Source: an uncultured Gammaproteobacteria bacterium (GTDB lineage: Bacteria > Patescibacteriota > Patescibacteriia > UBA11705 > JABHMO01). From it: DNA of 64,000 bases. Positions within the stretch are counted from its first letter, which is position 1. Each line of letters starts with the position of its first letter. The notes under the pieces were generated by a model. The model was not told the origin of the DNA. It saw nothing but the letters and a program-made list of their open reading frames with translations, and did not search any database. The stretch is taken from contig CAZPYM010000002.1 in assembly GCA_964590105.1 (NCBI GenBank), forward strand, positions 90,697 to 154,696, given 5' to 3'. Both the position numbers and the translations under genes were made by a program. Shown here in pieces: positions 461 through 55,506 of the stretch.

Positions 461-488
461 TTGACAAATAATAGATATCTGCTAAACT
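461..488 (+). promoter_or_regulatory. Sigma70-type promoter of the NfeD/flotillin operon
   Basis: TTGACA (461-466), 16-nt spacer, TAAACT (483-488), about 50 nt upstream of the GGAGG-preceded ATG at 542. Confidence 0.5.
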
Positions 489-541
489 ATTCCATTCTGC
501 AATTACGCAGAATTGGGCTCATTGAAAACAAAGGAGGCACT

Positions 542-1174
542 ATGGAAACATGGTGGGTCGCGCTCAGCGGTTCTGAACAGTTTTTCTGGGTAATTGCCAT
601 CATTTCCACAATCTTTTTGCTCTGCCAGTTTGTCATGCTCCTCGTCGGTCTGGATGACCAGCACGATGGGAGCACTGACACTGACGCAGATTTTGACGGA
701 CACGTTGATGGCCACGATCATGACTCTGATTCTGATCATGACCATGACGCCGGCCATCACGGCCTGGCACTCAAGAGTTTCTTTTCCATTCGCAGTTTGG
801 TGGCTTTTTTTCTCGGATTTTCATGGGGGGGACTTGGTTGTTTGGAATCAGGACTGTCACTTTCAGCGGCAGTCGCTATCAGTATCGTTATCGGAATTGT
901 GATGGCCAGTGTGGTTTTGCTGATTTTCCGGGCCCTTGTAGGCCTCCGGAGCAACGGCACGCTATCTGTCAAAAATGCGATCGGCCAGAAGGGCGTTGTG
1001 CTCATCCTGGTCCCGGCTAATAAAAACGGTTACGGAAAAGTGCATGTCACGGTCCAGGGGCGACTCTGCGACCTGACGGCGGTGACGGACGGCGACATCA
1101 GTCTGCCGAGAGGAACCTCCATCACTGTGAAAGACGTGAAAGGCGATTCTCTCGTAGTTGTCAAGGATCAGTAA
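542..1174 (+). CDS. NfeD/YqiJ-like membrane protein with a His/Asp-rich tract and a C-terminal OB-like NfeD domain
   Basis: ATG at 542 is preceded by AAAGGAGG, so the track start at 461 (TTG) is less likely. It has TM helices, the DDQHDGSTDTDADFDGHVDGHDHDSDSDHDHDAGHHG tract and a C-terminal GKVHVTVQGRLCDLTAVTDGD...VKDVKGDSLVV beta-rich domain. It lies directly upstream of a flotillin gene, like E. coli yqiJ-yqiK. Confidence 0.7.
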   Translation: METWWVALSGSEQFFWVIAIISTIFLLCQFVMLLVGLDDQHDGSTDTDADFDGHVDGHDHDSDSDHDHDAGHHGLALKSFFSIRSLVAFFLGFSWGGLGCLESGLSLSAAVAISIVIGIVMASVVLLIFRALVGLRSNGTLSVKNAIGQKGVVLILVPANKNGYGKVHVTVQGRLCDLTAVTDGDISLPRGTSITVKDVKGDSLVVVKDQ

Positions 1175-1206
1175 CCACCACACAACAACCCAAGAAGGAG
1201 GCTATC

Positions 1207-2907
1207 ATGGTGGCAGGAATCTCAATGTGGGTGATCCTGAGCGCGATTTTCGGGCTCATGGTCTTCATTCTTCTCATCTCGGCGGCGGCGCGCTACAAGC
1301 GCTGTCCGTCCAACAAAATCCTGGTCAAGTACGGCAAGGTCGGCAAGGACAAGTCCGCCGAGTGCATCCATGGCGGCGCCACCTTTGTGTGGCCGCTACT
1401 CCAGTCGTACGAGTATCTTGACCTCATCCCCATGACCATCGAGGTCAGCCTGAAGAGCGCGCTGTCCAAGCAGAACATCAGGATCAACGTGCCTTCCAGA
1501 TTCACCATCGGCGTATCCACCGAACCGCATGTCATGCAGTCGGCTGCAGAGCGCTTGCTCGGCCTGAGCCTCAAGGAAATCGAAACCCGGGCAGAGGACA
1601 TCATCCTCGGCCAGCTTCGCGCCACGATCGCCACGATGAAGATCGAGGAGATCAACAGCGACCGAGAGGGCTTCGAGAAGAAAGTCCAGGACAACGTCGA
1701 ATCCGAGCTGAACAAGATCGGCCTCAAGCTGATCAACGTGAACATCACGGACATCACTGACGAGTCCGGGTACATCGAGGCGCTCGGCAAGCAGGCCGCG
1801 GCCGAAGCCATCAACAACGCCAAAGTGCAGGTCGCCGAGCAGGACAAGGCTGGCGCCAGTGGAGAGGCAGAGGCTCGCAAGGACCAGACCATCAACGTCA
1901 CCGGCGCGGACCGGGAAGGCGCGGTGGTCAGAGCCCAAAACGAAGCCAAGATCTCCGAGGCGGACAAGGAACGCGACGTCAAGCGCGCCCAGTACACCGC
2001 GGAAACCCAGGCCGAAGAAGCCCGCCGCGACCAGGCCAAGCCGAAGGCAGACGCCGTGGCTCGGCAGGCGGTCGTGGTCGAGGAAGTCAAGGTCGAGGAA
2101 CGTCGCCAGCAGGCGCTGGTGGCGGTGAAGGAACGGGAGATCGAAGTAGCCGAGAAATCCCAGCAGGCTACGGTCGTCGTACCGGCGCTGAAGCTGGCAG
2201 ACGCGGCCGAAGCCAAGGCGGACGGCGATCGCCGAGCGGCGGTGAAGACCGCCGAAGGCCAGAAGCAATCGCAGATCCTCGCCGCGGAAGCTGAGAAGCA
2301 GAAGCGGGAACTCGAGGGTCAGGGCGAAGCGGCCCAGATCAAGGCGGTCGGGCTGGCCGAAGCGGCCAGAGTGCAGGCAATCGGCGAAGCCGAGGGCGCG
2401 GCCATCAAAGCCAAGCTCCTGGCCGAGGCCGAAGGTGTACTCAAGAAGGCAGAGGCCTATGCCAAGCTTGACAAAGCCGGAGCACTGCAGATGGTCCTGG
2501 AGAAGTTGCCCGAAATCATCGGCGCACTCGCGCCGGTCATGGCGGCAATCGCCAAGCCCATGGAGGCCATCGACAAGGTGGTAGTCATCGAACAGGGCAA
2601 CGGCGGCGGCGGCTCCGGACAGACCGGGGTATCCCGTTTCACCGGCAATGTGCCGGGAATCCTCTTCTCCTTCCTCCAGAAGGCAGGGGAAATGGGCATC
2701 GACGTCGGTCCCATGCTGAAGAAGGTCGGCATCGATGTCGAGGATCTGTTCAAGGCCGAGGCTCACAAGCCGACCGCCGAGGAACACGTCGACCAGCCGG
2801 CAGTTGAGGCGGCGCCCCCGGCCGCGGAAGCGACCAAGGGGACTCCGCCGGCCATTCCGGCAGATGCCAAACAGGGTGACAAGCACCCGCCCAAGGACGG
2901 CAAGTAA
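1207..2907 (+). CDS. Flotillin-family SPFH/Band-7 protein (YqiK-like)
   Basis: 566 aa with RBS AAGGAGG. It has an N-terminal TM segment, an SPFH domain (LDLIPMTIEV...RINVPSRFTIGV...LGQLRATIATMKIEEIN) and a long Ala/Glu/Lys-rich coiled-coil flotillin region. A 60-nt sample gives about 63% GC. Confidence 0.85.
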   Translation: MVAGISMWVILSAIFGLMVFILLISAAARYKRCPSNKILVKYGKVGKDKSAECIHGGATFVWPLLQSYEYLDLIPMTIEVSLKSALSKQNIRINVPSRFTIGVSTEPHVMQSAAERLLGLSLKEIETRAEDIILGQLRATIATMKIEEINSDREGFEKKVQDNVESELNKIGLKLINVNITDITDESGYIEALGKQAAAEAINNAKVQVAEQDKAGASGEAEARKDQTINVTGADREGAVVRAQNEAKISEADKERDVKRAQYTAETQAEEARRDQAKPKADAVARQAVVVEEVKVEERRQQALVAVKEREIEVAEKSQQATVVVPALKLADAAEAKADGDRRAAVKTAEGQKQSQILAAEAEKQKRELEGQGEAAQIKAVGLAEAARVQAIGEAEGAAIKAKLLAEAEGVLKKAEAYAKLDKAGALQMVLEKLPEIIGALAPVMAAIAKPMEAIDKVVVIEQGNGGGGSGQTGVSRFTGNVPGILFSFLQKAGEMGIDVGPMLKKVGIDVEDLFKAEAHKPTAEEHVDQPAVEAAPPAAEATKGTPPAIPADAKQGDKHPPKDGK

Positions 2908-2925
2908 GCGTCCATTGTAATCGAT

Positions 2926-2963
2926 CTCCCGTTACCACCAAGTTGGTATCGGGAGTTTTTTTT
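2926..2963 (+). terminator. Rho-independent terminator of the flotillin operon
   Basis: 12-bp stem ctcccgttacca/tggtatcgggag (1 mismatch), loop CCAAGT, then T8. Confidence 0.75.
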
Positions 2964-2972
2964 GACCGCTTA

Positions 2973-3001
2973 TTGACAATTACTAAATTTACCGTCATAC
3001 T
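2973..3001 (+). promoter_or_regulatory. Sigma70-type promoter of the small membrane-protein cassette
   Basis: TTGACA (2973-2978), 17-nt spacer, CATACT (2996-3001). Confidence 0.45.
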
Positions 3002-3040
3002 TGGACGAAACAACTGTCCTTTTAAATGGAGGTCTCAATC

Positions 3041-3292
3041 ATGCAATTCGTCTGGTGGAACATCGCGATTGCTTGGGCAATCATTTTTGCAATTTTCTTT
3101 GTAATCCTCAAAATCAAAGCATCCAAGAATCCTACCATCTCCGCTCTTACTTCGTCCGTAATGTCGATTGCAGCTTGCCTTGTTTTTCTCTGTACTCTCC
3201 ATTGGATATGCACTCATATCCTTGTAATTTCGATTGTTGCGTTCTCTGTTGCGGTTCTGACAGTAATATTCCTGCGGTTAAAAAACCAATAA
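3041..3292 (+). CDS. Small hydrophobic protein, about 3 TM helices, 83 aa, unknown function
   Basis: MQFVWWNIAIAWAIIFAIFFVILKIK... GGAGG lies 8 nt upstream of ATG 3041. The track start at 3026 overlaps that RBS. The gene has its own promoter and terminator. Confidence 0.6.
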   Translation: MQFVWWNIAIAWAIIFAIFFVILKIKASKNPTISALTSSVMSIAACLVFLCTLHWICTHILVISIVAFSVAVLTVIFLRLKNQ

Positions 3293-3297
3293 ACGTC

Positions 3298-3331
3298 AAA
3301 ACCAGCCCCTTACCGAGCTGGTTTTTTTATT
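3298..3331 (+). terminator. Rho-independent terminator
   Basis: aaaaccagc...gctggtttttttatt: stem ccagc/gctgg followed by a T-run. Confidence 0.6.
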
Positions 3332-3551: not shown

Positions 3552-3815
3552 TTATTTCACTGGATCATTCCCACCTTTTGAAAACGGGTTACATCGCAAA
3601 ACACGCCAAATCGCCTTAGAGCCGCCCTTGAATACGCCATACTTTTCAACAGCTTCATAACCATACTGCGAACAAGTCGGATGAAACCGGCAATAACCAC
3701 CCGGAAACATATGTTTCAGCGGACCATGGTCAAAAGACAAAGTGTTCTGATATATTCTAATCATTTTAAGCAAAACAATCCGAGGATAATATTTAAATAT
3801 TGAGATCTTCGTCAT
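3552..3815 (-). CDS. yidD: Membrane protein insertion efficiency factor YidD
   Basis: The IRIYQNTLS...[45 protein letters not shown] motif is typical of YidD. Start chosen at the internal Met (MTKISIF) so it does not overlap rnpA. Downstream of rnpA. Confidence 0.9.
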
Positions 3816-3849
3816 AAAATAAAAAGTGGGGGGGGAAAGGTGACACCAA

Positions 3850-4206
3850 TTATAACAGGCCAACTTGTTTAAGTAAATAAATCAGTTCTTTTTCGATGAC
3901 TAAATATTCTTTGTCTTTAATTGCCGACTTAACAATAATCAAACAATCATTTTTGATTTTTAATTTATCTAATTTAAGTCTGATTATTTCGCGCAACTGC
4001 CTTTTGATTTTATTCCTACCGGTAGCTCGCTTGTCAATTTTATTACTAATAATAAACCCAAACCGCGGATTATCAATTCCATTATTAAAACACTTGACAA
4101 TCAAAAGCTGCCCGGCCGTATTTCTACCTTTCTTTTGCTTGAATTCCCGACCAAAAAAAGCATCAAATTCTTTTTGTTTGGTAATTCTATTTTTTTTGTC
4201 CAACAT
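3850..4206 (-). CDS. rnpA: RNase P protein component
   Basis: 118-aa basic protein ([26 protein letters not shown]) in the conserved rpmH-rnpA-yidD order. Confidence 0.9.
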
Positions 4207-4311
4207 ATATTATATAGGTAATGCAACGAACGCTTCCCGTTTCCTATGTTAAAACAAAAAGCTTCACCTTTTCAAGTGTAGCTTTTTTGCATGAAAAAAT
4301 CCAGGTTAGTT

Positions 4312-4458
4312 TTATCGATCTGAAGAAGTTAGACTCTTCCTGGCGCGCTGTCTTCGCCTTTTCAATATTTTCCTTCCGTCTTTAGATTTCATCCTGCTCC
4401 TAAAACCGTGCTTTTTTAGCTTTTTTCTGGTATTTGGCTGGAATGTTCTTTTGGGCAT
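4312..4458 (-). CDS. rpmH: 50S ribosomal protein L34
   Basis: Hand translation: [48 protein letters not shown]. This is the classic L34 sequence. At 48 aa it is below the ORF-track cut-off. Confidence 0.9.
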
Positions 4459-4772
4459 ATACTAGGTTAGATGATTAAAAGAAAAAACTAAGAAATTAAT
4501 AAATTAAGAAAACAAGAAAAAAGGACCTTCTAATAAACTTAGCTTTGAAAAGTATAGCTCAAAATTAAATGTCTGTCAATGATTTTTTCTCTTGCAATTT
4601 TTTAGATAGTAATATAAAATTTTTACAAGAACTAACTTATCAACAGATTACTAACAGTTTAGACGCCTTTGGGGACATTTCAACAGCTTGTCCACATCTG
4701 CTTGCAGTGCTAAAATACAATCGTTAACAAGAATCTCGCTTCAGCAGGCTAACAAAAATAAAAATCCTTACT

Positions 4773-6152
4773 ATGGAAGATCAAAATCTACAACTTTGGC
4801 AAGCAGTGCTGGGCGAACTCGAGCTAACGCTGAGTAAGGCAAGCTTTACCACTTGGCTGAAAAATACTTTTATTATTGAAAATGAAGACGGCCGGATTGT
4901 TATCGGCGTGCCGAATACTTTTTCCCAAGCCTGGCTAAAACAAAAATATCATCAGAAAATTTACAACCTAATACAATCAAAAACCAAAGACCGAATTAAA
5001 GAAATCCACTATAAAGTCCAAAGCGTAAAAAATTATCAGGAAGAAATTAAAACACTGAAAAAACAAATTGTTGAAACAGCTCAAAATCAAGTAATACCCA
5101 CCAACCCTTCTTCCCCGACAAAAGTTCTGGGGCTCAATCCCAAGTATATATTTAACAATTTTATTGTTGGTAAAGGCAATGAACTGGCGCACGCCGCTTC
5201 CATTGCCGTGTCAGAACGACCGGGATTAACTTATAATCCTCTTTTTATTTACGGCGGCGTTGGTCTCGGAAAAACTCACTTATTGCATGCCGTTGGCAAT
5301 ACTATTTCTGCAAAAGATCCGAGTAAAAAAATTCTTTACGTTACTTGTGAGCAATTTACAAATGATTTCATAAGCGCCATCTCTTCCGGCCGAGCGGAAA
5401 AATTTAATATTGCCTACCGCACAGTGGATGTCCTCCTGATCGACGATATTCAATTTCTAACCGGCAAAGAAGGAACACAGGAAGCGTTTTTTCATACTTT
5501 TAATGACCTTCACCAGCGGGACAAACAAATTGTTTTGACTTCCGACCGACCGCCAAAAGCGATCGCCACGCTGGAAGACCGGCTTCTCTCAAGGTTTGAA
5601 TGGGGGATGATCGCTGATATTTCTCAGCCTGATCTTGAGACCAGAATTGCCATTTTAGAAGCAAAATGCCAGGAAAAAGAATTTGAATTGGAACGGGACA
5701 TCATTCAATATATTACCCTGAATATTCAAAACAACATTCGGGAGCTCGAAGGCGCTCTAAATAAAATAATAGCTTATCATCAACTGAACAAAATCACTCC
5801 CACCCTTGAAAACGTTAAAAAGATACTTTTTTCCATTTCCACTTCCAGCAAAAAAACCGGCGCTGTGTCCGCTCGTCAGCTGATTGAACTGGTTTGCGAT
5901 TTTTATGATTTGACAATTGACGATATGCTCGGCAAGAGCCGGGAAAAAAGACTGGCTTTCCCTCGCCAAATCATTATGTTTCTTCTTCGGGAAGAACTTC
6001 AATGCTCTTATCCAATGATTGGCAATGAACTCGGCGGCCGTGACCACACCACGGCTATGCACGCCCACGAAAAAATTTCCAGAGTCATGGAGTCGGATGA
6101 AAAAACCAGGCAGGAAATAAATTTAATCAAGCAAAGAGTTTACGCGCACTGA
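4773..6152 (+). CDS. dnaA: Chromosomal replication initiator DnaA
   Basis: 459 aa. Walker A GGVGLGKTHLL, the box VII/sensor region and C-terminal DNA-binding helices (GGRDHTTAMHAHEKI) are present. Confidence 0.97.
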   Translation: MEDQNLQLWQAVLGELELTLSKASFTTWLKNTFIIENEDGRIVIGVPNTFSQAWLKQKYHQKIYNLIQSKTKDRIKEIHYKVQSVKNYQEEIKTLKKQIVETAQNQVIPTNPSSPTKVLGLNPKYIFNNFIVGKGNELAHAASIAVSERPGLTYNPLFIYGGVGLGKTHLLHAVGNTISAKDPSKKILYVTCEQFTNDFISAISSGRAEKFNIAYRTVDVLLIDDIQFLTGKEGTQEAFFHTFNDLHQRDKQIVLTSDRPPKAIATLEDRLLSRFEWGMIADISQPDLETRIAILEAKCQEKEFELERDIIQYITLNIQNNIRELEGALNKIIAYHQLNKITPTLENVKKILFSISTSSKKTGAVSARQLIELVCDFYDLTIDDMLGKSREKRLAFPRQIIMFLLREELQCSYPMIGNELGGRDHTTAMHAHEKISRVMESDEKTRQEINLIKQRVYAH

Positions 6153-6457
6153 TATCCTGTGGAAAACTCCCCGGTTTCAAGGGATAAAATAAGTGGATAA
6201 AAACAAGTCCAATCTGTTCATAAATATCTACCTCGCGGTTTTCCTTCAATAGTCTGTTTTTGTCCCCTGCTCTGATACAGGCATATCAACAATTCATCCA
6301 TAGACCTGTTTGCATAAAATTAAATTAAACAAAGGCTTATCCACCGCTATCCACAGCATTATTATTATTATTATTTTTATATATATATAATTTCTTATAA
6401 TAAGAAGAAGAGCAAATCAATTAAATAGAAAAAAATAAGTCATAAAAAAACTGGGAT
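6153..6457. promoter_or_regulatory. Candidate oriC (DnaA boxes plus an AT-rich unwinding element) between dnaA and dnaN
   Basis: DnaA-box-like 9-mers: TGTGGAAAA 6158-6166, AGTGGATAA 6192-6200, TTATCCACC 6337-6345, CTATCCACA 6347-6355. These are followed by an (ATT)n/(TA)n tract at about 6358-6410. Two more near-consensus boxes lie upstream of dnaA (TTATCAACA 4637-4645, TTGTCCACA 4688-4696). Confidence 0.7.
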
Positions 6458-7585
6458 ATGAAATTAACTTGCTTGCAAGAAAATTTAAACTTCGGACTGC
6501 AGTCAACAGGACATTTGGTAAATAAAAATATTAATTTACCGATTCTTAGTAATGTACTTCTAGAAGCCAAGGAAGGAACCTTAAAACTCTCAAGCACGAA
6601 TCTTGAAATCGGCATCAGCTGTGTGGTTCGTTGCAAAGTTGAAACAGAAGGGTCTTTTACTGTTGACGCCAGGCTTTTGTCTGAATATATAAATTTATTG
6701 CCCAATGAACAAGTAAATATAAATTTAGCTAGTGATGATTTTTTGAAAGTAGCCTGTCGAAATTCAGAAACCAAAATAAAGGGCATCGTGGCGGATGACT
6801 TCCCTGTCATTCCAAAAATCGACAAGCAAAATCCGTATCGTGTAAAAATAGATGAATTTAAAAAAGCAATTTCGCAAGTAATTTTTACGGTCGCCTCATC
6901 AGAAAACAGACCGGAGATTAGTGGAGTATTGCTTAGTTTTAATAAGTTTAAGAAAAATGAATTATTTTTAGCTGGCACGGACAGCTACCGTTTGGCGGAA
7001 AAAAGTGTCGCCCTGGTTGAAGGTCAACAAGAGCAAGACGTGATAGTTCCACTAAAAACAATGCAGGAAGTTTTGCGAATATTGAATAATTTGAAAGATC
7101 AGGCCAATAATGTTGAACAGCTGGACATTTATATTTCAGAAAATCAAATTCTATTTAATTGCGATTCGATTGAATTAATTTCCCGACTGCTTGAAGGGCA
7201 GTATCCTGATTATAAACAAATAATTCCGCAAGAAACAAAAACCAAGATCATAACTTCGGTTGCCGAGCTAAGCAAAGCCATAAAAAAAGTGGCGTTATTT
7301 TCCAAAGCCGGAATTTTTGATATTAATTTAGTATTTGAAGCTCAAAAAGGACTGACAGTCAGCGCAGTGAATACTCAAGTCGGAGAAAGTAAAACTGATC
7401 TTGATGTAGAATTTACCGGCGAAACAAATGATACAACTTTGAACTTTCGATATTTATTGGACGGCTTGAATAATCTAGACTCAAGCGAAGTTGAAATTAG
7501 CCTAGTGGACAATAATCTCCCCTGTATTATGAAAGCAAAAGGAAAAGATGATTATTTGTATATTGTAATGCCGATTAAACAATGA
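6458..7585 (+). CDS. dnaN: DNA polymerase III beta sliding clamp
   Basis: 375 aa, directly after dnaA. N-terminus MKLTCLQENLNFGL...; the LAGTDSYRLAE and LLEGQYPDYKQIIP motifs are present. Confidence 0.95.
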   Translation: MKLTCLQENLNFGLQSTGHLVNKNINLPILSNVLLEAKEGTLKLSSTNLEIGISCVVRCKVETEGSFTVDARLLSEYINLLPNEQVNINLASDDFLKVACRNSETKIKGIVADDFPVIPKIDKQNPYRVKIDEFKKAISQVIFTVASSENRPEISGVLLSFNKFKKNELFLAGTDSYRLAEKSVALVEGQQEQDVIVPLKTMQEVLRILNNLKDQANNVEQLDIYISENQILFNCDSIELISRLLEGQYPDYKQIIPQETKTKIITSVAELSKAIKKVALFSKAGIFDINLVFEAQKGLTVSAVNTQVGESKTDLDVEFTGETNDTTLNFRYLLDGLNNLDSSEVEISLVDNNLPCIMKAKGKDDYLYIVMPIKQ

Positions 7586-7923: not shown

Positions 7924-8011
7924 GCCCCGGTGGCGGAATTGGTAGACGCGCAGGACTTAAAATCCTGTGGTTGTATAAACCGTGCCGGTTCGATTCCGGC
8001 CCGGGGCACCA
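7924..8011 (+). tRNA. tRNA-Leu (UAA), long variable arm, CCA encoded
   Basis: Acceptor GCCCCGG/CCGGGGC, anticodon arm CAGGA-CUUAAAA-UCCUG, long variable arm, T-arm CCGGUUCGAUUCCGG. Confidence 0.9.
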
Positions 8012-8136
8012 CGGAGGAAAAGTCAAAGAGTTTTGGTTCGCCTTGCTTCGCTCGGCGACCAATTGGTATTCAATTTTGGGGGTAAAAACGAATTTACGAT
8101 TTCGCATTTTGGAGGAAGAAAAAAATTTTAATCCTT

Positions 8137-8712
8137 ATGGAACAAAAAGAAATATTAAATTTTGCCAAAAATTCAGAAACCGTTATTTCTGGTAGTTTTC
8201 GAAAGCACATGGAACAAATTGGCAAAGCATTGGACGGTTTTGGAAAAGCTAATGTAAAAGTTCTTGCGCCAACTACAAGAGAAGCCATTAACCAAGATGA
8301 AGATTTTATTATTCTTGCCACTGATGACCCTAGTAAACCGCCACACAAATTGGAAATGGATTTTATGCGAGAAATACGTAAGGCGGATTTTCTGTATGTA
8401 GCTGATGTTGATGGGTATGTCGGACAAAGTGTTGCGACCGAGATGGCATATGCTCGGCTCAAAAATTTACCTGTTGTCGTTGCTGAAGTAATAAAAACTT
8501 TTTCTAGTGAAATTTCCGAGGAAGCACAAGAACTTTTGAAAAAAACTGTTGCTGGGACTCTCGGAATCTCAGACATATCAAAAGAGAAAATAGTGGAACT
8601 CAAACAAAGTTTTTCAAGTTTAGACATGCCGAATTTAACAGAGGAAGAAACTAGAATTTTGCAAACGCTCATTAAGAAATTACTTAAAGATTTAAAATCT
8701 CTACAAAAATGA
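8137..8712 (+). CDS. Nucleoside 2-deoxyribosyltransferase / Rcl(DNPH1)-like fold protein (putative dNMP N-glycosidase-like)
   Basis: ISGSFRKH...DFMREIRKADFLYVADVDGYVGQSVATEMAYARLKNLPVV fits the GS-R...D...E-x-x-YA pattern of the NDT/Rcl superfamily. The assignment rests on motifs only. Confidence 0.45.
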   Translation: MEQKEILNFAKNSETVISGSFRKHMEQIGKALDGFGKANVKVLAPTTREAINQDEDFIILATDDPSKPPHKLEMDFMREIRKADFLYVADVDGYVGQSVATEMAYARLKNLPVVVAEVIKTFSSEISEEAQELLKKTVAGTLGISDISKEKIVELKQSFSSLDMPNLTEEETRILQTLIKKLLKDLKSLQK

Positions 8713-9038
8713 ATAAAAGTAATTTGATTCTTAAAAACAACCCAACCCTCCGCGATTTTCAGGATTACATTGCTGTAATGGTAAAAGAGCGGGGGTTTGA
8801 TAAGGAAAGTATTTCTGAAATTTTTATGTTGTTTCTTGAAGAATGCGGAGAGATGGCCAAGGCCGCGCGAAAAATTCAAAACATAAAATCTGATAAAAAC
8901 TCCGAGCAATTTCATCTTGACTATGAAATTGCCGATGTGTTCATTTATTTGTTGGATATTTGTAATCATTACAATATTGATTTAGAAAAATCTTTTCGGG
9001 ATAAAGAAGAAGTTAACAAGAAAAGATTTTGGGAATAA
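8709..9038 (+). CDS. MazG-like all-alpha nucleotide pyrophosphohydrolase
   Basis: Carries the EExGE...A...E(I)ADV..YL motif (LEECGEMAKAARK...YEIADVFIYLLDI). It overlaps the upstream gene by 4 nt (ATGA). Confidence 0.7.
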   Translation: MNKSNLILKNNPTLRDFQDYIAVMVKERGFDKESISEIFMLFLEECGEMAKAARKIQNIKSDKNSEQFHLDYEIADVFIYLLDICNHYNIDLEKSFRDKEEVNKKRFWE

Positions 9039-9276
9039 TTATTATTAATTAATGCTGCCAAAGAAAAACTTAAAATTGTCAGCGGTGCGGCTCCGCCACC
9101 TTTCCGAATTTTTGCGGGGGGAATTCCTCGCCGCCTGCGGCGGCGAAATGCGTTCGGACTAATTCAAGAATACTGCGCCATGAAGTATATTTATAAAGCA
9201 GGAATAAGCCCCTGTTTTTTTGTTAGGTATATATTTGATTAATAAAAAAACCGACCGCGAGGGGCCGGAATTTTGT

Positions 9277-9555
9277 TTAGTGAATCGTGCTGTTTGGCGG
9301 AATAGTGTCCGTCGCTTCAGCAGCTTCTTTTTCCTTATCACCGATTTGAATTTTGCGCTGTTTTTCTTTGAACAGATCATCTGCCAAGTTGAGCAGGCAG
9401 AGAAGAAGTCGGGTTGTTTCCGGTAAAGTCTTGCCAGGATTAAGTTGCTCCATTTTAGTCCTTATGCACTCTATCAGCTTGCCGATATGATCTTCTGATT
9501 CCTCTGTTTTTATTGAGAGTTTGTGTCCTAGGAGTTCAATCGTAAAGCTATTCAT
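9277..9555 (-). CDS. zapA: Cell division protein ZapA
   Basis: MNSFTIELLGHKLSIKTEESEDHIGKLIECIRTKMEQL... is typical of ZapA. Start taken at the Met preceded by GGAGGA. A terminator hairpin lies just downstream. Confidence 0.8.
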   Translation of the reverse strand: MNSFTIELLGHKLSIKTEESEDHIGKLIECIRTKMEQLNPGKTLPETTRLLLCLLNLADDLFKEKQRKIQIGDKEKEAAEATDTIPPNSTIH

Positions 9556-9629
9556 GGACTTCCTCCTTGTTAACATTAATTATTAATGTTCGCATCACAA
9601 TACTCAATTTGAAATAAATTGTCAATTAG

Positions 9630-14217: not shown

Positions 14218-14452
14218 ATGTGTAAATAAATTACAAATAATAAATAACAAATTACAAGTAACAAATTGATTTAAAATAAACGAGCGCTCATAGAAAAAGC
14301 ACTCGTTTTACATCTCCACATTATAATTATAGCAAAGTTTTTTGGGTTTGTCAATGCATTGGCTAAAGTTAGTGCTTAAGGTTGGCGGAGGCGGAAGTTG
14401 TTTTTATCGTTTGTTTCTAAATTTACAGCAAGAAAACCAAAAATCAATCGGA

Positions 14453-37262: not shown

Positions 37263-37288
37263 CCGTTCGAACATTCGGACGGTTTTTT
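37263..37288 (+). terminator. Rho-independent terminator
   Basis: ccgttcga-aca-ttcggacgg followed by T6. Confidence 0.65.
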
Positions 37289-39629: not shown

Positions 39630-39658
39630 TTGACAGATTGTTTTCATTATTATAATAT
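39630..39658 (+). promoter_or_regulatory. Sigma70-type promoter of the HTH/GHKL operon
   Basis: TTGACAGATTG at 39630 is followed by overlapping TATAAT/TAATAT boxes at 39651-39658. Confidence 0.55.
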
Positions 39659-39714
39659 AATCGGTAAAGTGAATTGCTGGGACATTGACAATTATAGGGC
39701 AAAAGGAGGCAATA

Positions 39715-40719
39715 ATGAACCGAAAATCATTCAAGCCTGGCTATACGCTGGAGAGATTGCAAGAGCTTGAAGTGGCAGTCAGGGCGTGGTACGTCGGACT
39801 TCCAAAGCCGAAAATTCCCAATGCTGTGAGAATTACCGGCATGAGTTCCCGGACTGTTTTTTTGTATTTCCGGGCGGCGGAAAGGGGCAGTGGTCCCCAG
39901 CCATTGGTAATGGAGAGGCTGTTTGAAGCGACCGGAAATCCGGTTTTTCTTTTGAATGAACACGAAAAAGAGGCTTTCCGCGAACGCGGATTTGCCATGC
40001 CGGATGAGGTATTGCTTGGACAGAATGATTTTGCAGAGCCTCCGGCTGTCAAGACCAAAGGTAGGCGGCAAATTTCCATGCCTTTTGCAGAAGACAGGGG
40101 CGCGGCGATGGTCAGAGTGATTGCCGAGTGGTTTGACAGTCTGCCGTCGCCGAAAAGAGACCACGCGCAGAATCTCCTCGGAGTTGACGTCGCCACGGTT
40201 TACCGTTGGATCAAGGGGAAGACATTTCCCAATCTTGATTCTGTGTGCTCTTTGTGGAATACACTAGGAAATCCAGTTTTCCTTTTGCGTGAAAATGAGT
40301 TAAGTATTGCAAAAGCGCTTGGTTATGTGCCGGCGGAGGATTACCCGACACTGGAATCTTTCAGCGGGAAGTCTGTCTCTGACCAGCCGGCGTCCGCGTC
40401 GCTGAAAATTGCTGTCAGGACTGAAGCAGACTCGGTCAACGTGGAAGTAGCTTTTGGCAAAAAGGCGAGCAAGCTCCTGGTTGGCGTGCTGACCAGCGTG
40501 AGCGTGATCAGCGATTTGCTGCAAGAATCTGGTCTTTCCGGCGCGCCGGAGTCGATCAGATACAAGGCGGCAGAAGCAGTGATTAAAATAGTTACAGCTT
40601 TCAATTTGAAAACAGATGATTTTAGAAAAAGAACGCCCGAGGGGGGGGATGATGCGGAAACTCGCAAAAGGATGGAAATTGTTTATGGATTATTTCGACA
40701 ACCAGGAAAGGAGGAATGA
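39715..40719 (+). CDS. Tandem helix-turn-helix protein, 334 aa (internal duplication of an HTH-like module)
   Basis: RBS AAGGAGG, 6 nt from ATG 39715. Two paralogous modules: LPKPKIPNAVRITGMSSRTVFLYFRAA...EATGNPVFLLNEHEKEAFRERGF and LPSPKRDHAQNLLGVDVATVYRWIKGK...NTLGNPVFLLRENELSIAKALGY. A helical C-terminal part follows. Confidence 0.65.
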   Translation: MNRKSFKPGYTLERLQELEVAVRAWYVGLPKPKIPNAVRITGMSSRTVFLYFRAAERGSGPQPLVMERLFEATGNPVFLLNEHEKEAFRERGFAMPDEVLLGQNDFAEPPAVKTKGRRQISMPFAEDRGAAMVRVIAEWFDSLPSPKRDHAQNLLGVDVATVYRWIKGKTFPNLDSVCSLWNTLGNPVFLLRENELSIAKALGYVPAEDYPTLESFSGKSVSDQPASASLKIAVRTEADSVNVEVAFGKKASKLLVGVLTSVSVISDLLQESGLSGAPESIRYKAAEAVIKIVTAFNLKTDDFRKRTPEGGDDAETRKRMEIVYGLFRQPGKEE

Positions 40720-42249: not shown

Positions 42250-42262
42250 TATTAGAAATTAG

Positions 42263-42292
42263 GCGGCCCCGCCAAGTCGGGGCTGCTTTTTT
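42263..42292 (+). terminator. Rho-independent terminator of the HTH/GHKL operon
   Basis: gcggccccg-CCAAGT-cggggctgc (9-bp stem) followed by T6. Confidence 0.8.
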
Positions 42293-42338
42293 ATTTATTG
42301 AAATAAGATTGATTATTATGTAGGAAAAAGTTAATTTT

Positions 42339-42361
42339 AAAAACGCTCCACTTGGGGAGCG
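42339..42361 (-). terminator. Rho-independent terminator of the 674-aa gene
   Basis: On the minus strand: cgctcc-CCAAGT-ggagcg followed by T5, 12 nt after the stop. Confidence 0.65.
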
Positions 42362-42372
42362 TTTTGTTCTGA

Positions 42373-44397
42373 TTATTTTTGGGCGAATAATCGCCTGATT
42401 GTTTCTTGTTGTTCCGGCGTAAAAACCTGGTCAAGCCAGCTGATCTCTGCGTCGGGCGACACGCCGTATAAAACCTTGCCGCCAAGCGAGCCGCAAAAGC
42501 GCAAAAAAGTTTGGCTTTTATTGAGTTCTAGGCAGGCTTTAAAAATTTGTTTATAAGCGTTTTTATAATCAATCATTGGGTCAAAGCAATTTGCGTTTCG
42601 CATAACGCTGGCAATTTTGAAAAGTGTTCTCACCTTTCCGCCAAGGCAAAACACGGCAATGATTTGTTTTTGAAGTTGAGTTAATTCATTCGTGCGTTGG
42701 CATTCGACTTCAGTCGTTACGTCATTGCGGAGCCTTATAATCCTTGTCTTCGTGTCGTTTTTAGCCAAAACTGGCAAGGGAGCTGAATCTACCGGACTTG
42801 TTTTTGCGCTGTTTTCAGCAGGAGTTACCGCCGGTGAAACTGCCGGTGTGGGTTCTGTTTCCGGTTTTGGCGGTTTCGTTGTCGCGCAAAGAGATCTTAA
42901 CCGTTCGTGAAGTTCAGTCGGAATGATTGCTCCTGTGTCCCCGGTCGCAGCGGTACTTTGCATGTAGAGCGCATACTTTTTGCTCATGCGGCCGCAGAAA
43001 GTCAATGGCGGCTGGTCACGGCGGGAAATTTCCCTGGCCGTAGAAATGATGTTGCCGCGTCGTTTTGAATCGCTGCCAAGTAGTCCAAGTTTAAACAGTG
43101 CGTCGGCCACTTTCCAAGATGATTTTCTTGTGCCAATGATTTGATAGGCTGCAATGATCAGTGTTTCGTCTTCTAGTGAACATGGCGTGCCATCGGGAAC
43201 TTCATTTGTGTCTTCTGCGTCTTCGGGCGGAAGTATCGGAGCCTCAGAAGCTTGCCAGCTAAGAAGTTCCTCTTCGTCAAATTCAGGCGGCGCAGAAAGA
43301 ATATCTGTTCCCGCCGAAACTTCTTCAAAATGTTCAACCGGCGGGGCCATTTGACAGACCTTCAAAGCGTTTTGCAAGCGCAAAAGATCTTTGAGCTGAT
43401 CTTCAATAGGCGACCGCAACCGGAGGAGTTTCTGGATATAAGCGTCGATTTCTTCAATTTTTTCATACGCGCGTTCGATCGCGGCAGTGATTAGTTGGCA
43501 ATCTTCTTTGGAAGAAAATTCAAGGCGCGGCTTTAACTCCTGATCAATTATTTCATTTTGGATATAACTTCGATCGTCTTCCACAACGGTTTGCGCGCGG
43601 CGCAAACCGTCAAGGCGTCTTTGCAGGGGCGCGATGAACTGTTGCAAGGACTTAATCTTGATGCTGACATCGCAGCCATGTGTTCTCGTCGGTGTAGTAG
43701 AGATTTCTCCAGCCAGGGTTTCAAGCGCTTCATCCTCAATTTGACGTCTGATTTCCGACAGTAATTCGTCGAGTATCATGGCCAGAGCAAATGATGCGCT
43801 AGTAGCTTCTTTGCGGTCACCCTGGAAAGAGTGTTGTGCCAATAGTCCAAGTTCTTCAATGATTGAAGTAAGTCTTGGGTACTGATGAGATAGCCCGTTT
43901 AGGCTTTCCCGCGCTTCTTCTGAAACCATTGTTCTGATCGATTCCGGAGTCAGCGGTTCTTCTGCCGGCGAATCAACCTTTTCATCGACAGGGTCGATGG
44001 GGGGGGCAAAGTAGTCTAGTCGCTCCTGCGGATCGACGGGCATTTCAGGCACAACCCTTTTTCGGGAAGCTTCAATGATTCTTTCGAACTGTCCTTGGTC
44101 AAAGAAAAACCGGCGGTTAGTGTCATTGGTAATGATTACTCCGCCATACTGGATGAAGTAGTTTATCAGATGCCAGAGAGCTTTCCTATTGGAACAAGAA
44201 AAGCTCTGCAAGTACTTTTGAACCTTGTTCATTGGTTCCAGAATAGAATCCGGAGTTCTGGTCATCAAGCGGGTTTGCGAATCGCAGTTGTCGGCAAATC
44301 GTTTGCTGGTTTGGATCAGCAGTTCATGGTCAGGCGGACGGCGGGGATCTATATCACTCTTCCGCTTTTGCGCCTCCAGTTTTGTTATTTCTGTCAT
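42373..44397 (-). CDS. Large orphan protein, 674 aa: repeated winged-helix-like modules, a central coiled coil and acidic/Pro-rich linkers
   Basis: RBS AAGGAG. Paralogous modules: LIIAAYQIIGTRKSSWKVADALFKLGLL...PPLTFCGRMSKKYALY and QIIAVFCLGGKVRTLFKIASVMRNANCF...TFLRFCGSLGGKVLY. A weaker N-terminal copy is KALWHLINYFIQYGGVII. Heptad-rich region around aa 200-360. I saw no enzymatic motif. Confidence 0.6.
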   Translation of the reverse strand: MTEITKLEAQKRKSDIDPRRPPDHELLIQTSKRFADNCDSQTRLMTRTPDSILEPMNKVQKYLQSFSCSNRKALWHLINYFIQYGGVIITNDTNRRFFFDQGQFERIIEASRKRVVPEMPVDPQERLDYFAPPIDPVDEKVDSPAEEPLTPESIRTMVSEEARESLNGLSHQYPRLTSIIEELGLLAQHSFQGDRKEATSASFALAMILDELLSEIRRQIEDEALETLAGEISTTPTRTHGCDVSIKIKSLQQFIAPLQRRLDGLRRAQTVVEDDRSYIQNEIIDQELKPRLEFSSKEDCQLITAAIERAYEKIEEIDAYIQKLLRLRSPIEDQLKDLLRLQNALKVCQMAPPVEHFEEVSAGTDILSAPPEFDEEELLSWQASEAPILPPEDAEDTNEVPDGTPCSLEDETLIIAAYQIIGTRKSSWKVADALFKLGLLGSDSKRRGNIISTAREISRRDQPPLTFCGRMSKKYALYMQSTAATGDTGAIIPTELHERLRSLCATTKPPKPETEPTPAVSPAVTPAENSAKTSPVDSAPLPVLAKNDTKTRIIRLRNDVTTEVECQRTNELTQLQKQIIAVFCLGGKVRTLFKIASVMRNANCFDPMIDYKNAYKQIFKACLELNKSQTFLRFCGSLGGKVLYGVSPDAEISWLDQVFTPEQQETIRRLFAQK

Positions 44398-44444
44398 GGG
44401 TCTTTCTCCTTTTTTTTGGTTGTCAATTTACATTCGGACTTTTA

Positions 44445-53800: not shown

Positions 53801-54649
53801 TCAATAATTTGTTATAAATTCTAACACATTTTTTGCGGTATCAAACTTTGCTTCATGCAATTCCTTTGCCAGCCTTAACCCCCGATAGTACAAGGCAACT
53901 TTAAATATTGGATCATAGTTTTTTTCGTGTCCGTATAATCGTTTTGCATTCGTCAAAAGTATTTTTGCATCCTCTGTGCGATCAGTATAGCCGATCAACT
54001 GCAGTGCTGTGTAGGCAAAATCATAATATTTTAATGACCAACCCGCCCAGCCAGTATCAATCAATAACAATTCGCCGTCATTCAATCTGCCAATATGCCA
54101 TGGCACGATATCATGATGCTGGAATGCCCAGTTACTACCAAACTCACTCATTACACCAATAGCCTGGTCAACAAAGGTTTTTGAAATTAATTCATTTTCA
54201 AGTAAATAGATAGAATTAGTATGGATGTTTTTTTGAAAATTACCTTTTCTAAACATCCAATCATCTTTAATCGTCTGCGGTAGGTCTTTAAATAATATAT
54301 TTCTCATCACCTTTTGCAATTTCATGTATTTATCCAAATAACATTGAATTGGCTCATTGCTACCGCCCAATTCGCCCAACCACACTACCTGTCCTGTTAT
54401 ATCCGAAAACACTATCATTCCATCATCCAAGGTTGTTGGTAGAAACTTAAATCCGCAATCATTTTTCAGAGCAAGATTATGTAAAAATTTTTGGTTATTA
54501 TATTCACGATCGATCATCTTTTTACCGGCGTCAGTCATTGGAGTCTTAATAAAAACTTTTGACGAATCAATTTTTCGACTAGCTAAAACAACCGAATAGT
54601 CGTTAGTTTTCTTAATCGTTGAATTGTAAATATATTTTTCTAATTTCAT
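53801..54649 (-). CDS. Aminoglycoside/choline-kinase-like phosphotransferase (APH family) protein
   Basis: FQHHDIVPWHIG (HxDxxxxN-like) and LLLIDTGWAGW (DxG) are present. ATG at 54649 preferred over the TTG at 54664. Confidence 0.65.
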   Translation of the reverse strand: MKLEKYIYNSTIKKTNDYSVVLASRKIDSSKVFIKTPMTDAGKKMIDREYNNQKFLHNLALKNDCGFKFLPTTLDDGMIVFSDITGQVVWLGELGGSNEPIQCYLDKYMKLQKVMRNILFKDLPQTIKDDWMFRKGNFQKNIHTNSIYLLENELISKTFVDQAIGVMSEFGSNWAFQHHDIVPWHIGRLNDGELLLIDTGWAGWSLKYYDFAYTALQLIGYTDRTEDAKILLTNAKRLYGHEKNYDPIFKVALYYRGLRLAKELHEAKFDTAKNVLEFITNY

Positions 54650-54662
54650 ATAAAGTTTTTCC

Positions 54663-54687
54663 AAATTTCAAAAGGGCTTGAAAAAAA
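54663..54687. repeat. Right arm of the 25-bp perfect inverted repeat
   Basis: aaatttcaaaagggcttgaaaaaaa. See 53717-53741. Confidence 0.8.
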
Positions 54688-54721
54688 ATTAATAAAGAGT
54701 TTGTTTTTTGCTATTTCAGCT

Positions 54722-54960
54722 AACTGGTTTCTATGCGAAAATAGTTCGCCTTTGATACAAAATTGCGCAGTAAAGGCGAAGTTCGGCAATTTGGATGTTA
54801 CTCCGCCACGCGGAAGACTTCATCCAGCGAAGTGATTCCTTTCAGCGCTTTCATCAGTCCGTCCTGGACCATGGTAATCATGCCGTTCTTGACGGCGAAT
54901 TCCTGCATGTCGTATTCAGAAACTTTGCCGCCGAGAATTATTTTTTCAATTTCCTTGGTC
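54722..54960. repeat. Left copy of a 239-bp direct repeat (pilB 3' end plus downstream sequence)
   Basis: Aligns base-for-base, with no length change, to 55570-55808. The coding-homologous part (54798-54960) has 7 mismatches in 163 nt. The downstream part is more diverged. Confidence 0.9.
54798..54960 (-). pseudogene. Detached 3' fragment of a pilB/gspE allele (last 54 codons)
   Basis: Minus-strand translation TKEIEKIILGGKVSEYDMQEFAVKNGMITMVQDGLMKALKGITSLDEVFRVAE*, against TKEIEKIILSGKVSEYDMQEFAIKNGMITMVQDGLMKALKGITSLDEVFRVAE* in the intact gene. Homology ends abruptly at 54960. Confidence 0.85.
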
Positions 54961-54967
54961 GTCTAGC

Positions 54968-54996
54968 TTGACATAGGCCAGAAGATGTGCTATCCT
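54968..54996 (+). promoter_or_regulatory. Sigma70-type promoter of the cassette between the direct repeats
   Basis: TTGACA (54968-54973), 17-nt spacer, TATCCT (54991-54996). The GATGTGCTAT motif is shared with the 32.76-kb promoter. Confidence 0.6.
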
Positions 54997-55049
54997 GATA
55001 AAAGTCAGTAATGGTATTGATAAGTCAAACCTTAACAAAGGAGGAAGTC

Positions 55050-55442
55050 ATGGCAACAGACGGACCAACCCCTGCATCTTGTGATCAAGAGATTTTTCAG
55101 AAAGGCGAGCCCGTGGCCTTTTTGGACGGTAGTTCAAATGCCGTCGAAAATTGGGTTCAAGAAGTCGCCAAAAAGGCAAATGCTCGTGTCGACTGGCATT
55201 ACAGTGGCGGTATCGCTCAGGTCCTTCATTTTGGAGACATGGAAAGCCGCCGGCGTGTTGAAAAAGCAATCGTGAATATGCAGGAAGTCGACAACCCTAG
55301 CGTTATGCGTCGATTAATAGCAGGCTCGCCTGGTTTGTATCGCAAGGGCGTTACAGAAGCACCAAAAGGCGCAGTCGCTGGGTTCATGGATCCGATTTCC
55401 GGCAAGCAAGCCTATATAGTGGTCGACTCAAGCGAGGATTAG
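55050..55442 (+). CDS. Orphan soluble protein, 130 aa (GC-richer cassette)
   Basis: RBS AAAGGAGGAAG. MATDGPTPASCDQEIFQKGEPVAFLDGSSNAVENWVQEVAKKANARVDWHYSGG... I recognised no family. Confidence 0.6.
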   Translation: MATDGPTPASCDQEIFQKGEPVAFLDGSSNAVENWVQEVAKKANARVDWHYSGGIAQVLHFGDMESRRRVEKAIVNMQEVDNPSVMRRLIAGSPGLYRKGVTEAPKGAVAGFMDPISGKQAYIVVDSSED

Positions 55443-55468
55443 TTTACGTATTTTGCGCTCCACTGAAT

Positions 55469-55506
55469 ACCGCCAATATACCACAAAGGTTGAGGCGGTT
55501 TTTTTA
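55469..55506 (+). terminator. Rho-independent terminator of the cassette
   Basis: accgcc...ggcggt stem followed by T8. Confidence 0.6.

Follow-up and report, generated by a model that had tools for sequence, protein, structure and literature searches.

Ten gene blocks with predicted promoters, Shine–Dalgarno sequences and terminators between the core genes of a Falkowbacteria-like chromosome

Introduction

Flexible genomic islets, also called replacement islands, are slots framed by conserved flanks that hold divergent alleles, or unrelated genes, in related genomes. Here we analyse a 64,000-nucleotide (nt) stretch of bacterial DNA (contig CAZPYM010000002.1 of assembly GCA_964590105.1; hereafter the window). 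Between positions 461 and 55,506, the window carries ten gene blocks, or cassettes, set in the gaps between housekeeping genes. We think it probable that these blocks make up the accessory gene set of a Falkowbacteria-like chromosome. They would be insulated units, led by a Shine–Dalgarno (SD) sequence and with fast-changing content, in the gaps of a core gene set that lacks the SD. As in flexible islets, the flanks are conserved and the content of the slots differs between relatives. In contrast, the slots described here span 0.3–5 kb, occur nearly once per core gene over 12 kb, and give each gene its own predicted transcription unit.

Phage morons, described for HK97 and HK022, are a second point of reference (Cumby et al. 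2012, PMC3594210). A moron is a gene added between conserved neighbours; it brings its own σ70 promoter and intrinsic terminator and differs from them in GC content. Similarly, the blocks interrupt gene pairs that are adjacent in related genomes: tsaC–DUF167 and phosphoesterase–tsaC in the locus designated L001, and flotillin–yidD in L031. A predicted consensus promoter and terminator belong to every block. The products are often envelope or host-interaction proteins, and the block 10 family occurs in large phage genomes. The GC content differs from that of surrounding genes for blocks 1, 6, 7, 8 and 10 but not for blocks 2, 4, 5 and 9. Unlike morons, the blocks lie in the origin-proximal chromosomal core, not in a prophage, and bear an SD that neighbouring genes lack. 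Some (blocks 1 and 6) are long resident and, being present in relatives too, are not moron-like insertions. Integron cassettes are likewise small, modular, single-gene units, mostly of unknown function. We rejected an integron since the window has no attC and no IntI. There is also no common Pc; the blocks have their own promoters and terminators and face either way.

The initiation signals resemble those of Bacteroidia, in which translation does not depend on an SD (Baez et al. 2019, PMC6847099). In both cases, most core genes are SD-less with A-rich, weakly structured starts, and an SD-led minority stands apart. Enrichment of A is at −11 to −13 here and at −12 and −13 there. The hallmark here is U at −1, rather than A at −3 or −6. 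The systems also differ in which genes are SD-led (see also Jha et al. 2021, PMC7797042; McNutt et al. 2023, PMC9976891). Here, these genes (about a quarter) are an accessory class, not rpsU or prfB. The literature searched offered no account of a division of core from accessory genes by the SD, nor of the use of the SD in Candidate Phyla Radiation (CPR) bacteria, other than the anti-SD survey of Tsurumaki et al.

Results

SD sequences are essentially exclusive to cassette genes

The sharpest feature of the cassettes, absent from a preliminary description of the window, is the near-exclusive use of their translation initiation signal. We called an SD strong if its duplex with CACCUCCUUU had a dG of −8 kcal/mol or less. 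All 14 cassette genes have a strong SD, compared with 2 of the 46 others in the window (Fisher's test, 7e-12). The two are zapA and one weak case; the other 44 have no SD. Every cassette gene has (A)GGAGG 5–10 nt upstream of its ATG, bearing out the strong GGAGG-type ribosome-binding site that the preliminary description gave to each block. Upstream of dnaA, dnaN, pnp, rpsO, rpmF, tig, hppA, tsaC/D and the rest, there is A/T-rich sequence only. SD sequences are essentially exclusive to genes of the cassette class.

SD-less starts have a signal of their own. In the window, T occupies position −1 at 35 of 44 SD-less genes and at 2 of 16 SD-led genes (p = 4e-6). For comparison, when every ATG of the window is counted, just 20% are preceded by T. 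At SD-less starts, A reaches 53–56% at positions −11 to −13, and there is no G at −1 or −2. Positions −3 and −6 have A at 39% and 42%, respectively, and T at −1 (81%) is the dominant signal. The start regions also differ in predicted folding. The minimum free energy is −8.25 kcal/mol for cassette genes and −4.05 kcal/mol for others (p = 2e-4). Cassette starts are GC-richer too. Hence, pairing with the SD may allow such structured 5′ ends to be translated.

We examined the same signals in related genomes and found both patterns again in three of them. In the loci L026, L028, L031 and L032, for which independent database gene calls were used, a strong SD precedes 20 of 31 genes with no Pfam match. 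The corresponding number for genes with a Pfam match, or otherwise conserved, is 4 of 42 (p = 9e-7). Relative to its own locus, GC content is 3.7 points higher for SD-led genes and 2.1 points lower for SD-less genes (p = 7e-7). T is at −1 in 38 of 49 SD-less genes but only 2 of 24 SD-led genes (p = 2e-8). The same split is evident in L001 and L004, with gene calls made in this analysis. The 7 kb past the window provided an out-of-sample case. Here, groES, groEL and the NUDIX and Wzy_C genes are SD-less with T at −1. Three genes with no Pfam match and a radical-SAM/SPASM gene are SD-led, have A at −1 and are higher in GC. We conclude that the near-exclusive pairing of gene class with initiation signal is clade-wide and predictive.

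Could the SD-led genes instead be a translational regulon? If so, ribosomes would by default be blind to the SD, and these genes would be translated only when the anti-SD is exposed. Position in gaps, and turnover, would be secondary. The mutual exclusion of SD and U(−1) across about 130 genes in four genomes favours this idea. Furthermore, the ribosomal-protein and chaperone genes rpsO, rpmF, tig and groESL have no SD, so the SD is not simply a mark of high expression. There is also a precedent in Bacteroidia, where the anti-SD is reportedly exposed in ribosomes lacking bS21 (PMC7797042, PMC9976891). However, the SD in Bacteroidia is confined to a handful of genes, against about a quarter here, and zapA, a housekeeping gene, is SD-led. 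We consider a regulon of this kind unlikely.

Two observations concern individual starts. The rpmF gene, encoding ribosomal protein L32 (46,620–46,880, minus strand), lies between hppA and tRNA-Glu and is SD-less with T at −1. A 13-codon open reading frame (ORF; 47,045–47,097) with a strong AAGGAGG overlaps the predicted promoter of tRNA-Glu (47,165–47,239). This ORF may be due to chance or may encode a tiny leader peptide.

Each block resembles a self-contained transcription unit

The blocks and one further unit of the same type are listed below. Cassette proteins are denoted by "c" and the block number; lengths are in amino acids (aa).

461–2963, plus strand: cassette 1; promoter 461–488, leader hairpin 494–512, NfeD-like gene 542–1174, flotillin (SPFH) gene 1207–2907, terminator about 2925–2963
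2973–3331, plus strand: cassette 2; promoter TTGACA-17-CATACT, 83-aa three-helix membrane protein 3041–3292 with no Pfam match, terminator
9240–9625, minus strand: zapA unit; promoter 9597–9625, AAGGAGG, zapA 9277–9555, terminator
25,453–26,246, minus strand: cassette 3; promoter 26,218–26,246, 225-aa membrane-anchored protein 25,492–26,169, terminator 25,453–25,480
32,744–33,974, plus strand: cassette 4; promoter TTGACA-17-TATAAT, 26-codon SD-led ORF 32,827–32,907, c4a 32,909–33,442 (membrane), c4b 33,435–33,929 (Cys-rich), terminator shared with DUF167
34,252–34,790, minus strand: cassette 5; promoter 34,762–34,790, 146-aa lipoprotein-like protein 34,284–34,724, terminator
35,496–36,005, plus strand: cassette 6; promoter TTGACA-17-TATAAT, 121-aa secreted Cys-rich protein 35,557–35,922 with a C-x-S/A-P-W-P-F end, terminator
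36,813–37,288, plus strand: cassette 7; promoter TTGACA-16-TATAAT, stand-alone receiver-domain protein 36,875–37,240, terminator
39,630–42,320, plus strand: cassette 8, first unit; promoter 39,630–39,658, c8a 39,715–40,719, c8b 40,720–42,249, terminator
42,330–44,473, minus strand: cassette 8, second unit, facing the first tail to tail; promoter 44,445–44,473, 674-aa c8c 42,373–44,397, terminator
49,467–49,779, minus strand: cassette 9; promoter 49,751–49,779, 74-aa CxxC...CxxC protein 49,497–49,721, terminator
54,968–55,506, plus strand: cassette 10; promoter 54,968–54,996, 130-aa protein 55,050–55,442, terminator

An exact TTGACA opens all ten blocks, and a hairpin followed by a T-run ends all ten, just as first described. 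Counted by gene, 12 of 14 have such a terminator, and both exceptions are internal to an operon. The pattern TTGACA-N16–18-TANNNT fits nine blocks. Hence, the TAnnnT-like −10 element attributed to every block holds for all but block 2, which has CATACT at 17 nt. The same pattern occurs 19 times in the window, whereas shuffled sequences yield 1.73. Eight of the 19 sites belong to native genes, among them tRNA-Gly, zapA, the gene resembling trmB and a surface-protein gene; use of TTGACA by native tRNA and surface-protein genes had been anticipated. From 32.7 to 44.5 kb, the blocks alternate one-for-one with trmB-like, DUF167, tsaC, phosphoesterase, hyp-tig and hppA, exactly as the preliminary description has it.

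Other parts of that description need amendment. It called the blocks single-gene modules, which is wrong for block 1 (two genes), block 4 (three ORFs) and block 8 (two convergent units with three genes). It counted at least ten cassettes. The ten are real, but an eleventh unit of the same anatomy was overlooked (zapA with its promoter, 9277–9625, minus strand). The architecture therefore extends beyond genes of unknown family. We rejected the possibility that the cassette genes are spurious ORFs: each is equipped with a promoter, an SD, an ATG start and a terminator, and homologues exist for blocks 1, 6, 8b and 10.

The only repeat common to cassettes is a similarity between the promoters of blocks 4 and 6. 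These sequences (32,740–32,772 and 35,492–35,524) are 82% identical over 33 nt (ATxATTGACAGTAGATT...TATAAT), which goes beyond what the consensus requires.

Similar signals were seen at genes outside the blocks. Ahead of the SpoIID-domain gene, the segment 14,040–14,354 (minus strand) has TTGACA-17-TATAAT at 14,326–14,354. A leader of about 300 nt follows, with a terminator-like hairpin. It may be an attenuator or other leader element; there is no Rfam match. A 785-aa ORF with no Pfam match (61,289–63,646) has a TTGACA-17-TATCAT promoter and lacks an SD. It looks like a repeat-rich surface protein, with internal direct repeats of about 700 nt (62,280–62,844 and 62,979–63,555, about 80% identical) and a run of 9-nt repeats at 62,936–63,006. 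A perfect 22–24-nt palindrome, AAATGTTCCACGTGGAACATTT, occurs twice (30,970–30,993 and 31,639–31,662). The two copies flank tRNA-Arg(CCT) upstream of the trmB-like regulator gene, and AAATGTTCCACGTGGAACATTT may be an operator-like site.

The blocks belong to the chromosome of a Falkowbacteria-like host

The window has a GC content of 41%. The sequences most closely related to tig and tsaC come from metagenome-assembled genomes (MAGs) of Candidatus Falkowbacteria and other Patescibacteria. A protein identical to that of tsaC is encoded on a 594-kb contig. The host is Falkowbacteria-like (CPR/Patescibacteria), with a tiny genome. A region of replication-origin type spans 3552–7585, with yidD and rnpA on the minus strand followed by dnaA (4773–6152) and dnaN (6458–7585) on the plus strand. 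The minimum of the cumulative GC skew is near 6 kb. Cassettes 1 and 2 directly adjoin this region. The window also contains eight tRNA genes and the housekeeping genes ruvB, rnc, nusB, lspA, pnp, rpsO, tsaC/D/E, tig, hppA, ychF and a type II/IV secretion ATPase.

GC-richer fragments of other organisms might have been joined to a CPR contig during assembly or binning. The sole support for such an artefact is that base composition changes stepwise at blocks 1, 6 and 8. However, at least seven independent assemblies are 100.000% identical to the window across all the junctions that they cover, namely those of blocks 1, 2 and 4–9. These are ENA ERZ27248895, ERZ27248920, ERZ27248939 and ERZ27248953, Logan SRR8437217, and JGI 3300028191 and 3300028156. 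They derive from different samples and assemblers. Hence, the chimeric contig that the preliminary description had itself raised is excluded for blocks 1, 2 and 4–9. Unrelated MAGs also show the same block architecture. The probability of an artefact is, in our view, negligible.

Gap content turns over while core gene order is conserved

We compared loci around tig and tsaC (L001, L004, L025, L026/27 and L028–30). In L001 and L025–L030, tsaC is 80–96% identical to that of the window. The core genes of the relatives follow one another as in the window: tsaD ... hppA – tig – (211-aa gene) – phosphoesterase – tsaC – DUF167 ... trmB – tRNAs – xerC-like – rpsO – pnp. Nearly all native genes of the interval from 24 to 49 kb are conserved in this order. 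By contrast, cassette proteins 3–8 have no tblastn match at E ≤ 1e-4 in the corresponding loci. Clusters of cassette proteins at 90% identity comprise only alternative start calls from the same species.

Some gaps are empty in relatives. In L001, tsaC and DUF167 are 39 bp apart, and the phosphoesterase gene and tsaC are 86 bp apart; blocks 5 and 6 occupy these sites in the window. Block 5 is also absent from L004, where tsaC again abuts DUF167, and L025, L026 and L028 have other SD-led genes instead. Block 2 is absent from L031, in which flotillin is followed directly by yidD. Filled gaps hold other small genes with no Pfam match, often on the opposite strand. The slot of block 3 (pnp to a 407-aa gene) has different genes in L028, and that of block 4 has about ten other small genes in L026. 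Different genes also replace block 7 in L001 (encoding a helix-turn-helix (HTH) protein), L026 and L028. The replacement genes share the anatomy of the cassettes. For example, L004 2562–2846 (minus strand) has TTGACA-N17-TATCAT, GGAGG and a terminator.

The borders are sharp. In L025, with tsaC 91% identical at the nucleotide level, homology ends exactly at 35,487 and 34,815, the borders of blocks 6 and 5. At this site, L025 has an insertion sequence (IS) and different cassettes with TTGACA and GGAGG. As one of its two readings, the preliminary description had proposed a pool of accessory genes specific to the lineage in place of ordinary operons. The lack of matches for cassettes 3–8 amid conserved native order, and the exact borders in L025, support this reading.

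The IS itself (L025 254–1423) encodes a DDE_Tnp_1 transposase, has terminal repeats of about 20 nt, and lies between tsaC and the promoter of the neighbouring cassette. L025 is the closest relative of a different species.

Blocks 1 and 6 are likely long-term residents

These comparisons raise the possibility that every one of the ten blocks arrived recently by horizontal transfer, as a ready-made promoter–gene–terminator module from a foreign donor. The absence of cassette proteins from syntenic loci, the sharp borders against the closest relative and the signs of insertion at block 10 (below) speak for it. So does the composition of the class: cassette genes have a median GC content of 0.48, against 0.40 for others (p = 2e-5), and a higher GC content at third codon positions (GC3). 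However, blocks 1 and 6 do not fit, as alignment to relatives finds them at the same position.

L031 holds block 1 at the same locus: Polysacc_synt, NfeD–flotillin, yidD–rnpA ... rpmH, dnaA–dnaN. Both GGAGG sites are present, and the promoter and leader are recognisably conserved (TTGACAAAT...TATTCCATTCTGC). Identity between the window and L031 is 81% for dnaA, 58% for flotillin and 43% for NfeD. That flotillin is the best match among 5.8 billion proteins; the next are at most 46% identical, from unrelated phyla and non-syntenic, which also weighs against recent import. Within block 1, GC content steps up at the NfeD start codon and down at the flotillin stop codon, not at the block borders. 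The promoter, leader and terminator stay AT-rich, and across the blocks promoters and leaders are AT-rich and host-like. Flotillin matches Band_7 (PF01145, 1e-30) and Flot (PF15975, 2.8e-8), both above the cut-offs. Its NfeD-like partner scores 16.6 bits with PF01957 over residues 146–208, below the 29.1 cut-off (E 0.009), and its adjacency and membrane topology fit the assignment.

The cassette 1 leader contains a hairpin, TTCTGC-N6-GCAGAA (494–512), right after the predicted transcription start site. It folds better than shuffled sequences (z = −2.5). In L031 (about 7270–7295), the stem is conserved and the loop is different.

Likely positional orthologues of block 6 occur in two lineages, where they match it in both slot and strand (L026 9474–9842(−) and L028 9341–9760(−)). 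The proteins are 26–31% identical to c6; the adjacent tsaC is 84–86% identical. They share the signal or transmembrane segment and the arrangement of Cys residues, end in a C-x-P-(W)-P-F motif, and have the same layout of promoter and SD. Blocks 1 and 6 are, on these comparisons, likely the clearest long-term residents rather than recent insertions. Promoters and SD sequences have been retained in both at 26–58% protein identity, which argues that these signals are under selection in the host and that the SD is functional.

Base composition does not date the blocks

The preliminary description called the blocks GC-richer. The class median and about six blocks agree, but block 2 (0.398) and block 4 (0.378) do not stand out from the rest of the window (0.395). 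It had also proposed a compositional check. We compared each gene with core-gene fragments of the same length. Dinucleotide and codon-usage deviation is significant for five genes (NfeD, flotillin, c6, c8a and c8b) and marginal for c2, c7, c8c and c10. The check was null for five more (c3, c4a, c4b, c5 and c9), which are compositionally like core genes; this is a further point against recent arrival of all blocks. The orthologues of blocks 1 and 6, too, exceed the GC content of the genomes that carry them. These oldest residents are the most compositionally deviant blocks. Hence, GC deviation is no sign of recent arrival, and is a poor clock for gene acquisition in these genomes. With nine blocks lacking att-like repeats or a dedicated integrase as well (see below), we judge recent foreign acquisition of all ten to be improbable.

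A low-GC block lies at 51,600–54,700 (GC 0.30–0.35; GC3 0.24–0.34). It contains a gene for a RIO-type protein kinase (52,808–53,506, minus strand) and two genes with no Pfam match, all SD-less. The genes are each bracketed by inverted terminator-like copies (53,717/54,663, 100% identical; 52,800/53,524, 89%).

Block 10 has the marks of an insertion

Block 10 is flanked by direct repeats of about 300 nt with 88% identity:

54,663–54,960: left repeat; degenerate copy of the T2SSE ATPase gene's 3′ end and downstream spacer, with a broken frame
55,513–55,808: right repeat; spacer and intact 3′ end of the T2SSE ATPase gene (55,646–57,436, minus strand)

A full-length homologue of c10 is encoded by a 595-kb uncultured phage (LR756511.1; E 9e-12, 42% identity). 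Four IMG/VR contigs (37–407 kb) encode others, 41–46% identical. Because of these phage homologues and the flanking repeats, block 10 looks acquired. The repeats fit integration of DNA with a homologous segment, or duplication-mediated insertion. The preliminary description inferred repeated acquisition of promoter-equipped modules. The case is clear for block 10 only, and the positional orthologues of blocks 1 and 6 contradict it.

Signs of mobility elsewhere are lacking. Flanking repeats were found at none of the other nine blocks. We found no shared recombination site, or dedicated integrase, for the blocks in the window. A prophage was rejected because there are no phage genes: the window has no phage structural genes, and the neighbours of the blocks are dnaA, dnaN, pnp, rpsO, tig, tsaC, tsaD and hppA. 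Nor is this a classical genomic island. Only block 10 has flanking repeats, the blocks measure 0.3–4.8 kb, and none abuts a tRNA gene.

A dedicated site-specific system, either integron-like or built on a novel cassette recombinase, could in principle move the cassettes. Their modularity and the reuse of slots across genomes would suit such a system, and a tyrosine recombinase is encoded at 29,355–30,227. However, this enzyme, the only tyrosine recombinase in the window, is XerC/D-like and found in the same place in all relatives. The cassette ends share no attC-like sequence or imperfect inverted repeat, and the cassettes have their own promoters and both orientations. We regard a dedicated system as very improbable.

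Cassettes encode mostly small envelope and secreted proteins

The preliminary description recognised no family among the products. This was mistaken for block 1 (Band_7 and Flot, with an NfeD-like partner), block 7 and c8b. Proteins c2, c3 and c4a are membrane proteins, c5 is lipoprotein-like, c6 is secreted and Cys-rich, and c4b and c9 are CxxC proteins. An orphan receiver domain makes up c7 (Response_reg, PF00072; 9.4e-18, 64.9 bits); it has no output domain, and there is no kinase gene for it in the window. Protein c10 is small and soluble, from a family shared with phages. Searches of PADLOC, PHROGs and NCBIfam gave no significant match for ten cassette proteins, bar weak HTH and GHKL hints. 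For c3, there was no match in these libraries or in Pfam, and family searches with c9 were also negative.

Block 8 is the largest cassette. Protein c8a has weak HTH and phage-repressor-like matches. It also has an internal duplication, with two copies of an HTH-like module that each end in GNPVFLL. The family of c8b forms 129 representative clusters. Across 73 members, residues E37, N41, D83 and G87 of the E-x3-N (N-box) and D-x-G-x-G (G1 box) motifs are invariant, and G85 is nearly so; 26 of the 73 match HATPase_c_3. An AlphaFold (AF2) model of c8b has a mean confidence score (pLDDT) of 90.1. Foldseek aligns the model to the ATPase modules of TRAP1, MORC2/3/4 and SMCHD1 over 375–450 columns (E 3e-12 to 1e-9), covering the GHKL domain and the transducer (S5-like) domain. 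According to its modelled fold, c8b is a MORC/Hsp90-like GHKL ATPase. No match for c8c was found in family libraries, or in phage or plasmid searches. Scans of viral contigs with c8b, c8c and c3 found nothing. Phages and plasmids gave no tblastn match to the three c8 proteins, and plasmids gave none to the small cassette proteins.

The hppA–tig slot of L001 also encodes a GHKL-motif protein, in a similar three-gene arrangement. Its similarity to c8b (pairwise E 1e-3) is limited to the motif region, and c8a and c8c have no significant pairwise similarity to the proteins of this slot. MORC/paraMORC-type GHKL ATPases of prokaryotic conflict systems were reportedly described by Iyer, Abhiman and Aravind in 2008. 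The Bergerat-fold motifs of c8b, its GHKL and transducer domains, and its place in a variable slot, beside an HTH protein and a large partner protein, are similar. The differences are that no PADLOC model matches c8b and that its partners have no recognisable nuclease or methylase domains. A role in conflict or defence is plausible for the block 8 module.

Discussion

Our preferred explanation for the blocks has three parts. First, each would be an insulated transcription unit with a σ70-type promoter, a 25–55 nt leader containing an SD, one to three ORFs and an intrinsic terminator. Such units would occupy the gaps between housekeeping genes, the order of which is conserved in the clade. They would supply mostly small envelope and secreted proteins, together with flotillin–NfeD, an orphan receiver and a three-gene GHKL ATPase module. 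Second, the content of the gaps turns over, or diverges, far faster than the flanking core genes. By different routes, blocks 1, 6 and possibly 8 would be long-term residents that diverge very fast, while blocks 2–5 and 7 would have been replaced or gained. Block 10 would be a recombination insert from a gene pool common to large phages. Third, the class would be marked by its translation initiation signal more than by GC content. Accessory starts take the form SD-N5–10-AUG with no U at −1. Core starts lack the SD and have an A/U-rich, weakly structured context in which U precedes the AUG directly and A is favoured from −11 to −13. The host 16S rRNA would have kept its anti-SD, and SD-led initiation would let structured, GC-richer 5′ ends be translated where the default needs unstructured, A/U-rich leaders. 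The anatomy at the sequence level, its statistics, the synteny with turnover and the fold of c8b are shown directly, whereas these last two points, and the working of the promoters, SDs and terminators, are inferred.

Several points weigh against this explanation. The SD statistic for the window is circular because the presence of an SD was among the reasons for first picking the blocks; testing relatives and the adjoining 7 kb lessens the problem, but covers only about 80 genes. No 16S rRNA 3′ end was found in the window or any fetched locus, and about half of Parcubacteria 16S sequences reportedly have no detectable anti-SD (PMC9297842). The flotillin gene reaches a GC3 of 0.81 here, against 0.39 for its L031 orthologue (8001–9614), and neither vertical descent nor a known donor explains the high value. 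Finally, the orthology of block 6 depends on weak similarity (E 0.007 to L026; 5e-9 between L026 and L028), combined with position and the shared Cys pattern.

A bolder extension is that one cell uses two initiation codes. Core genes would use an SD-free, A-rich U(−1)AUG code and accessory genes the SD. In that case, the ribosome could turn accessory, host-interaction and defence genes on or off as one set, for instance by exposing or hiding the anti-SD, and incoming genes would join the SD class instead of the core class. We put this forward tentatively, as a doubtful but specific proposal. Class-wide translational control is a hypothesis testable with existing metatranscriptomes, proteomes and 16S sequences.

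Genes of unknown function make up much of CPR/Patescibacteria genomes, and their expression in uncultured cells is little understood. A rule that pairs SD with no U(−1), and no SD with U(−1), would sort accessory from core genes and improve the calling of start codons. The "plug-in" architecture of phage morons would also organise the flexible part of a minimal bacterial chromosome.

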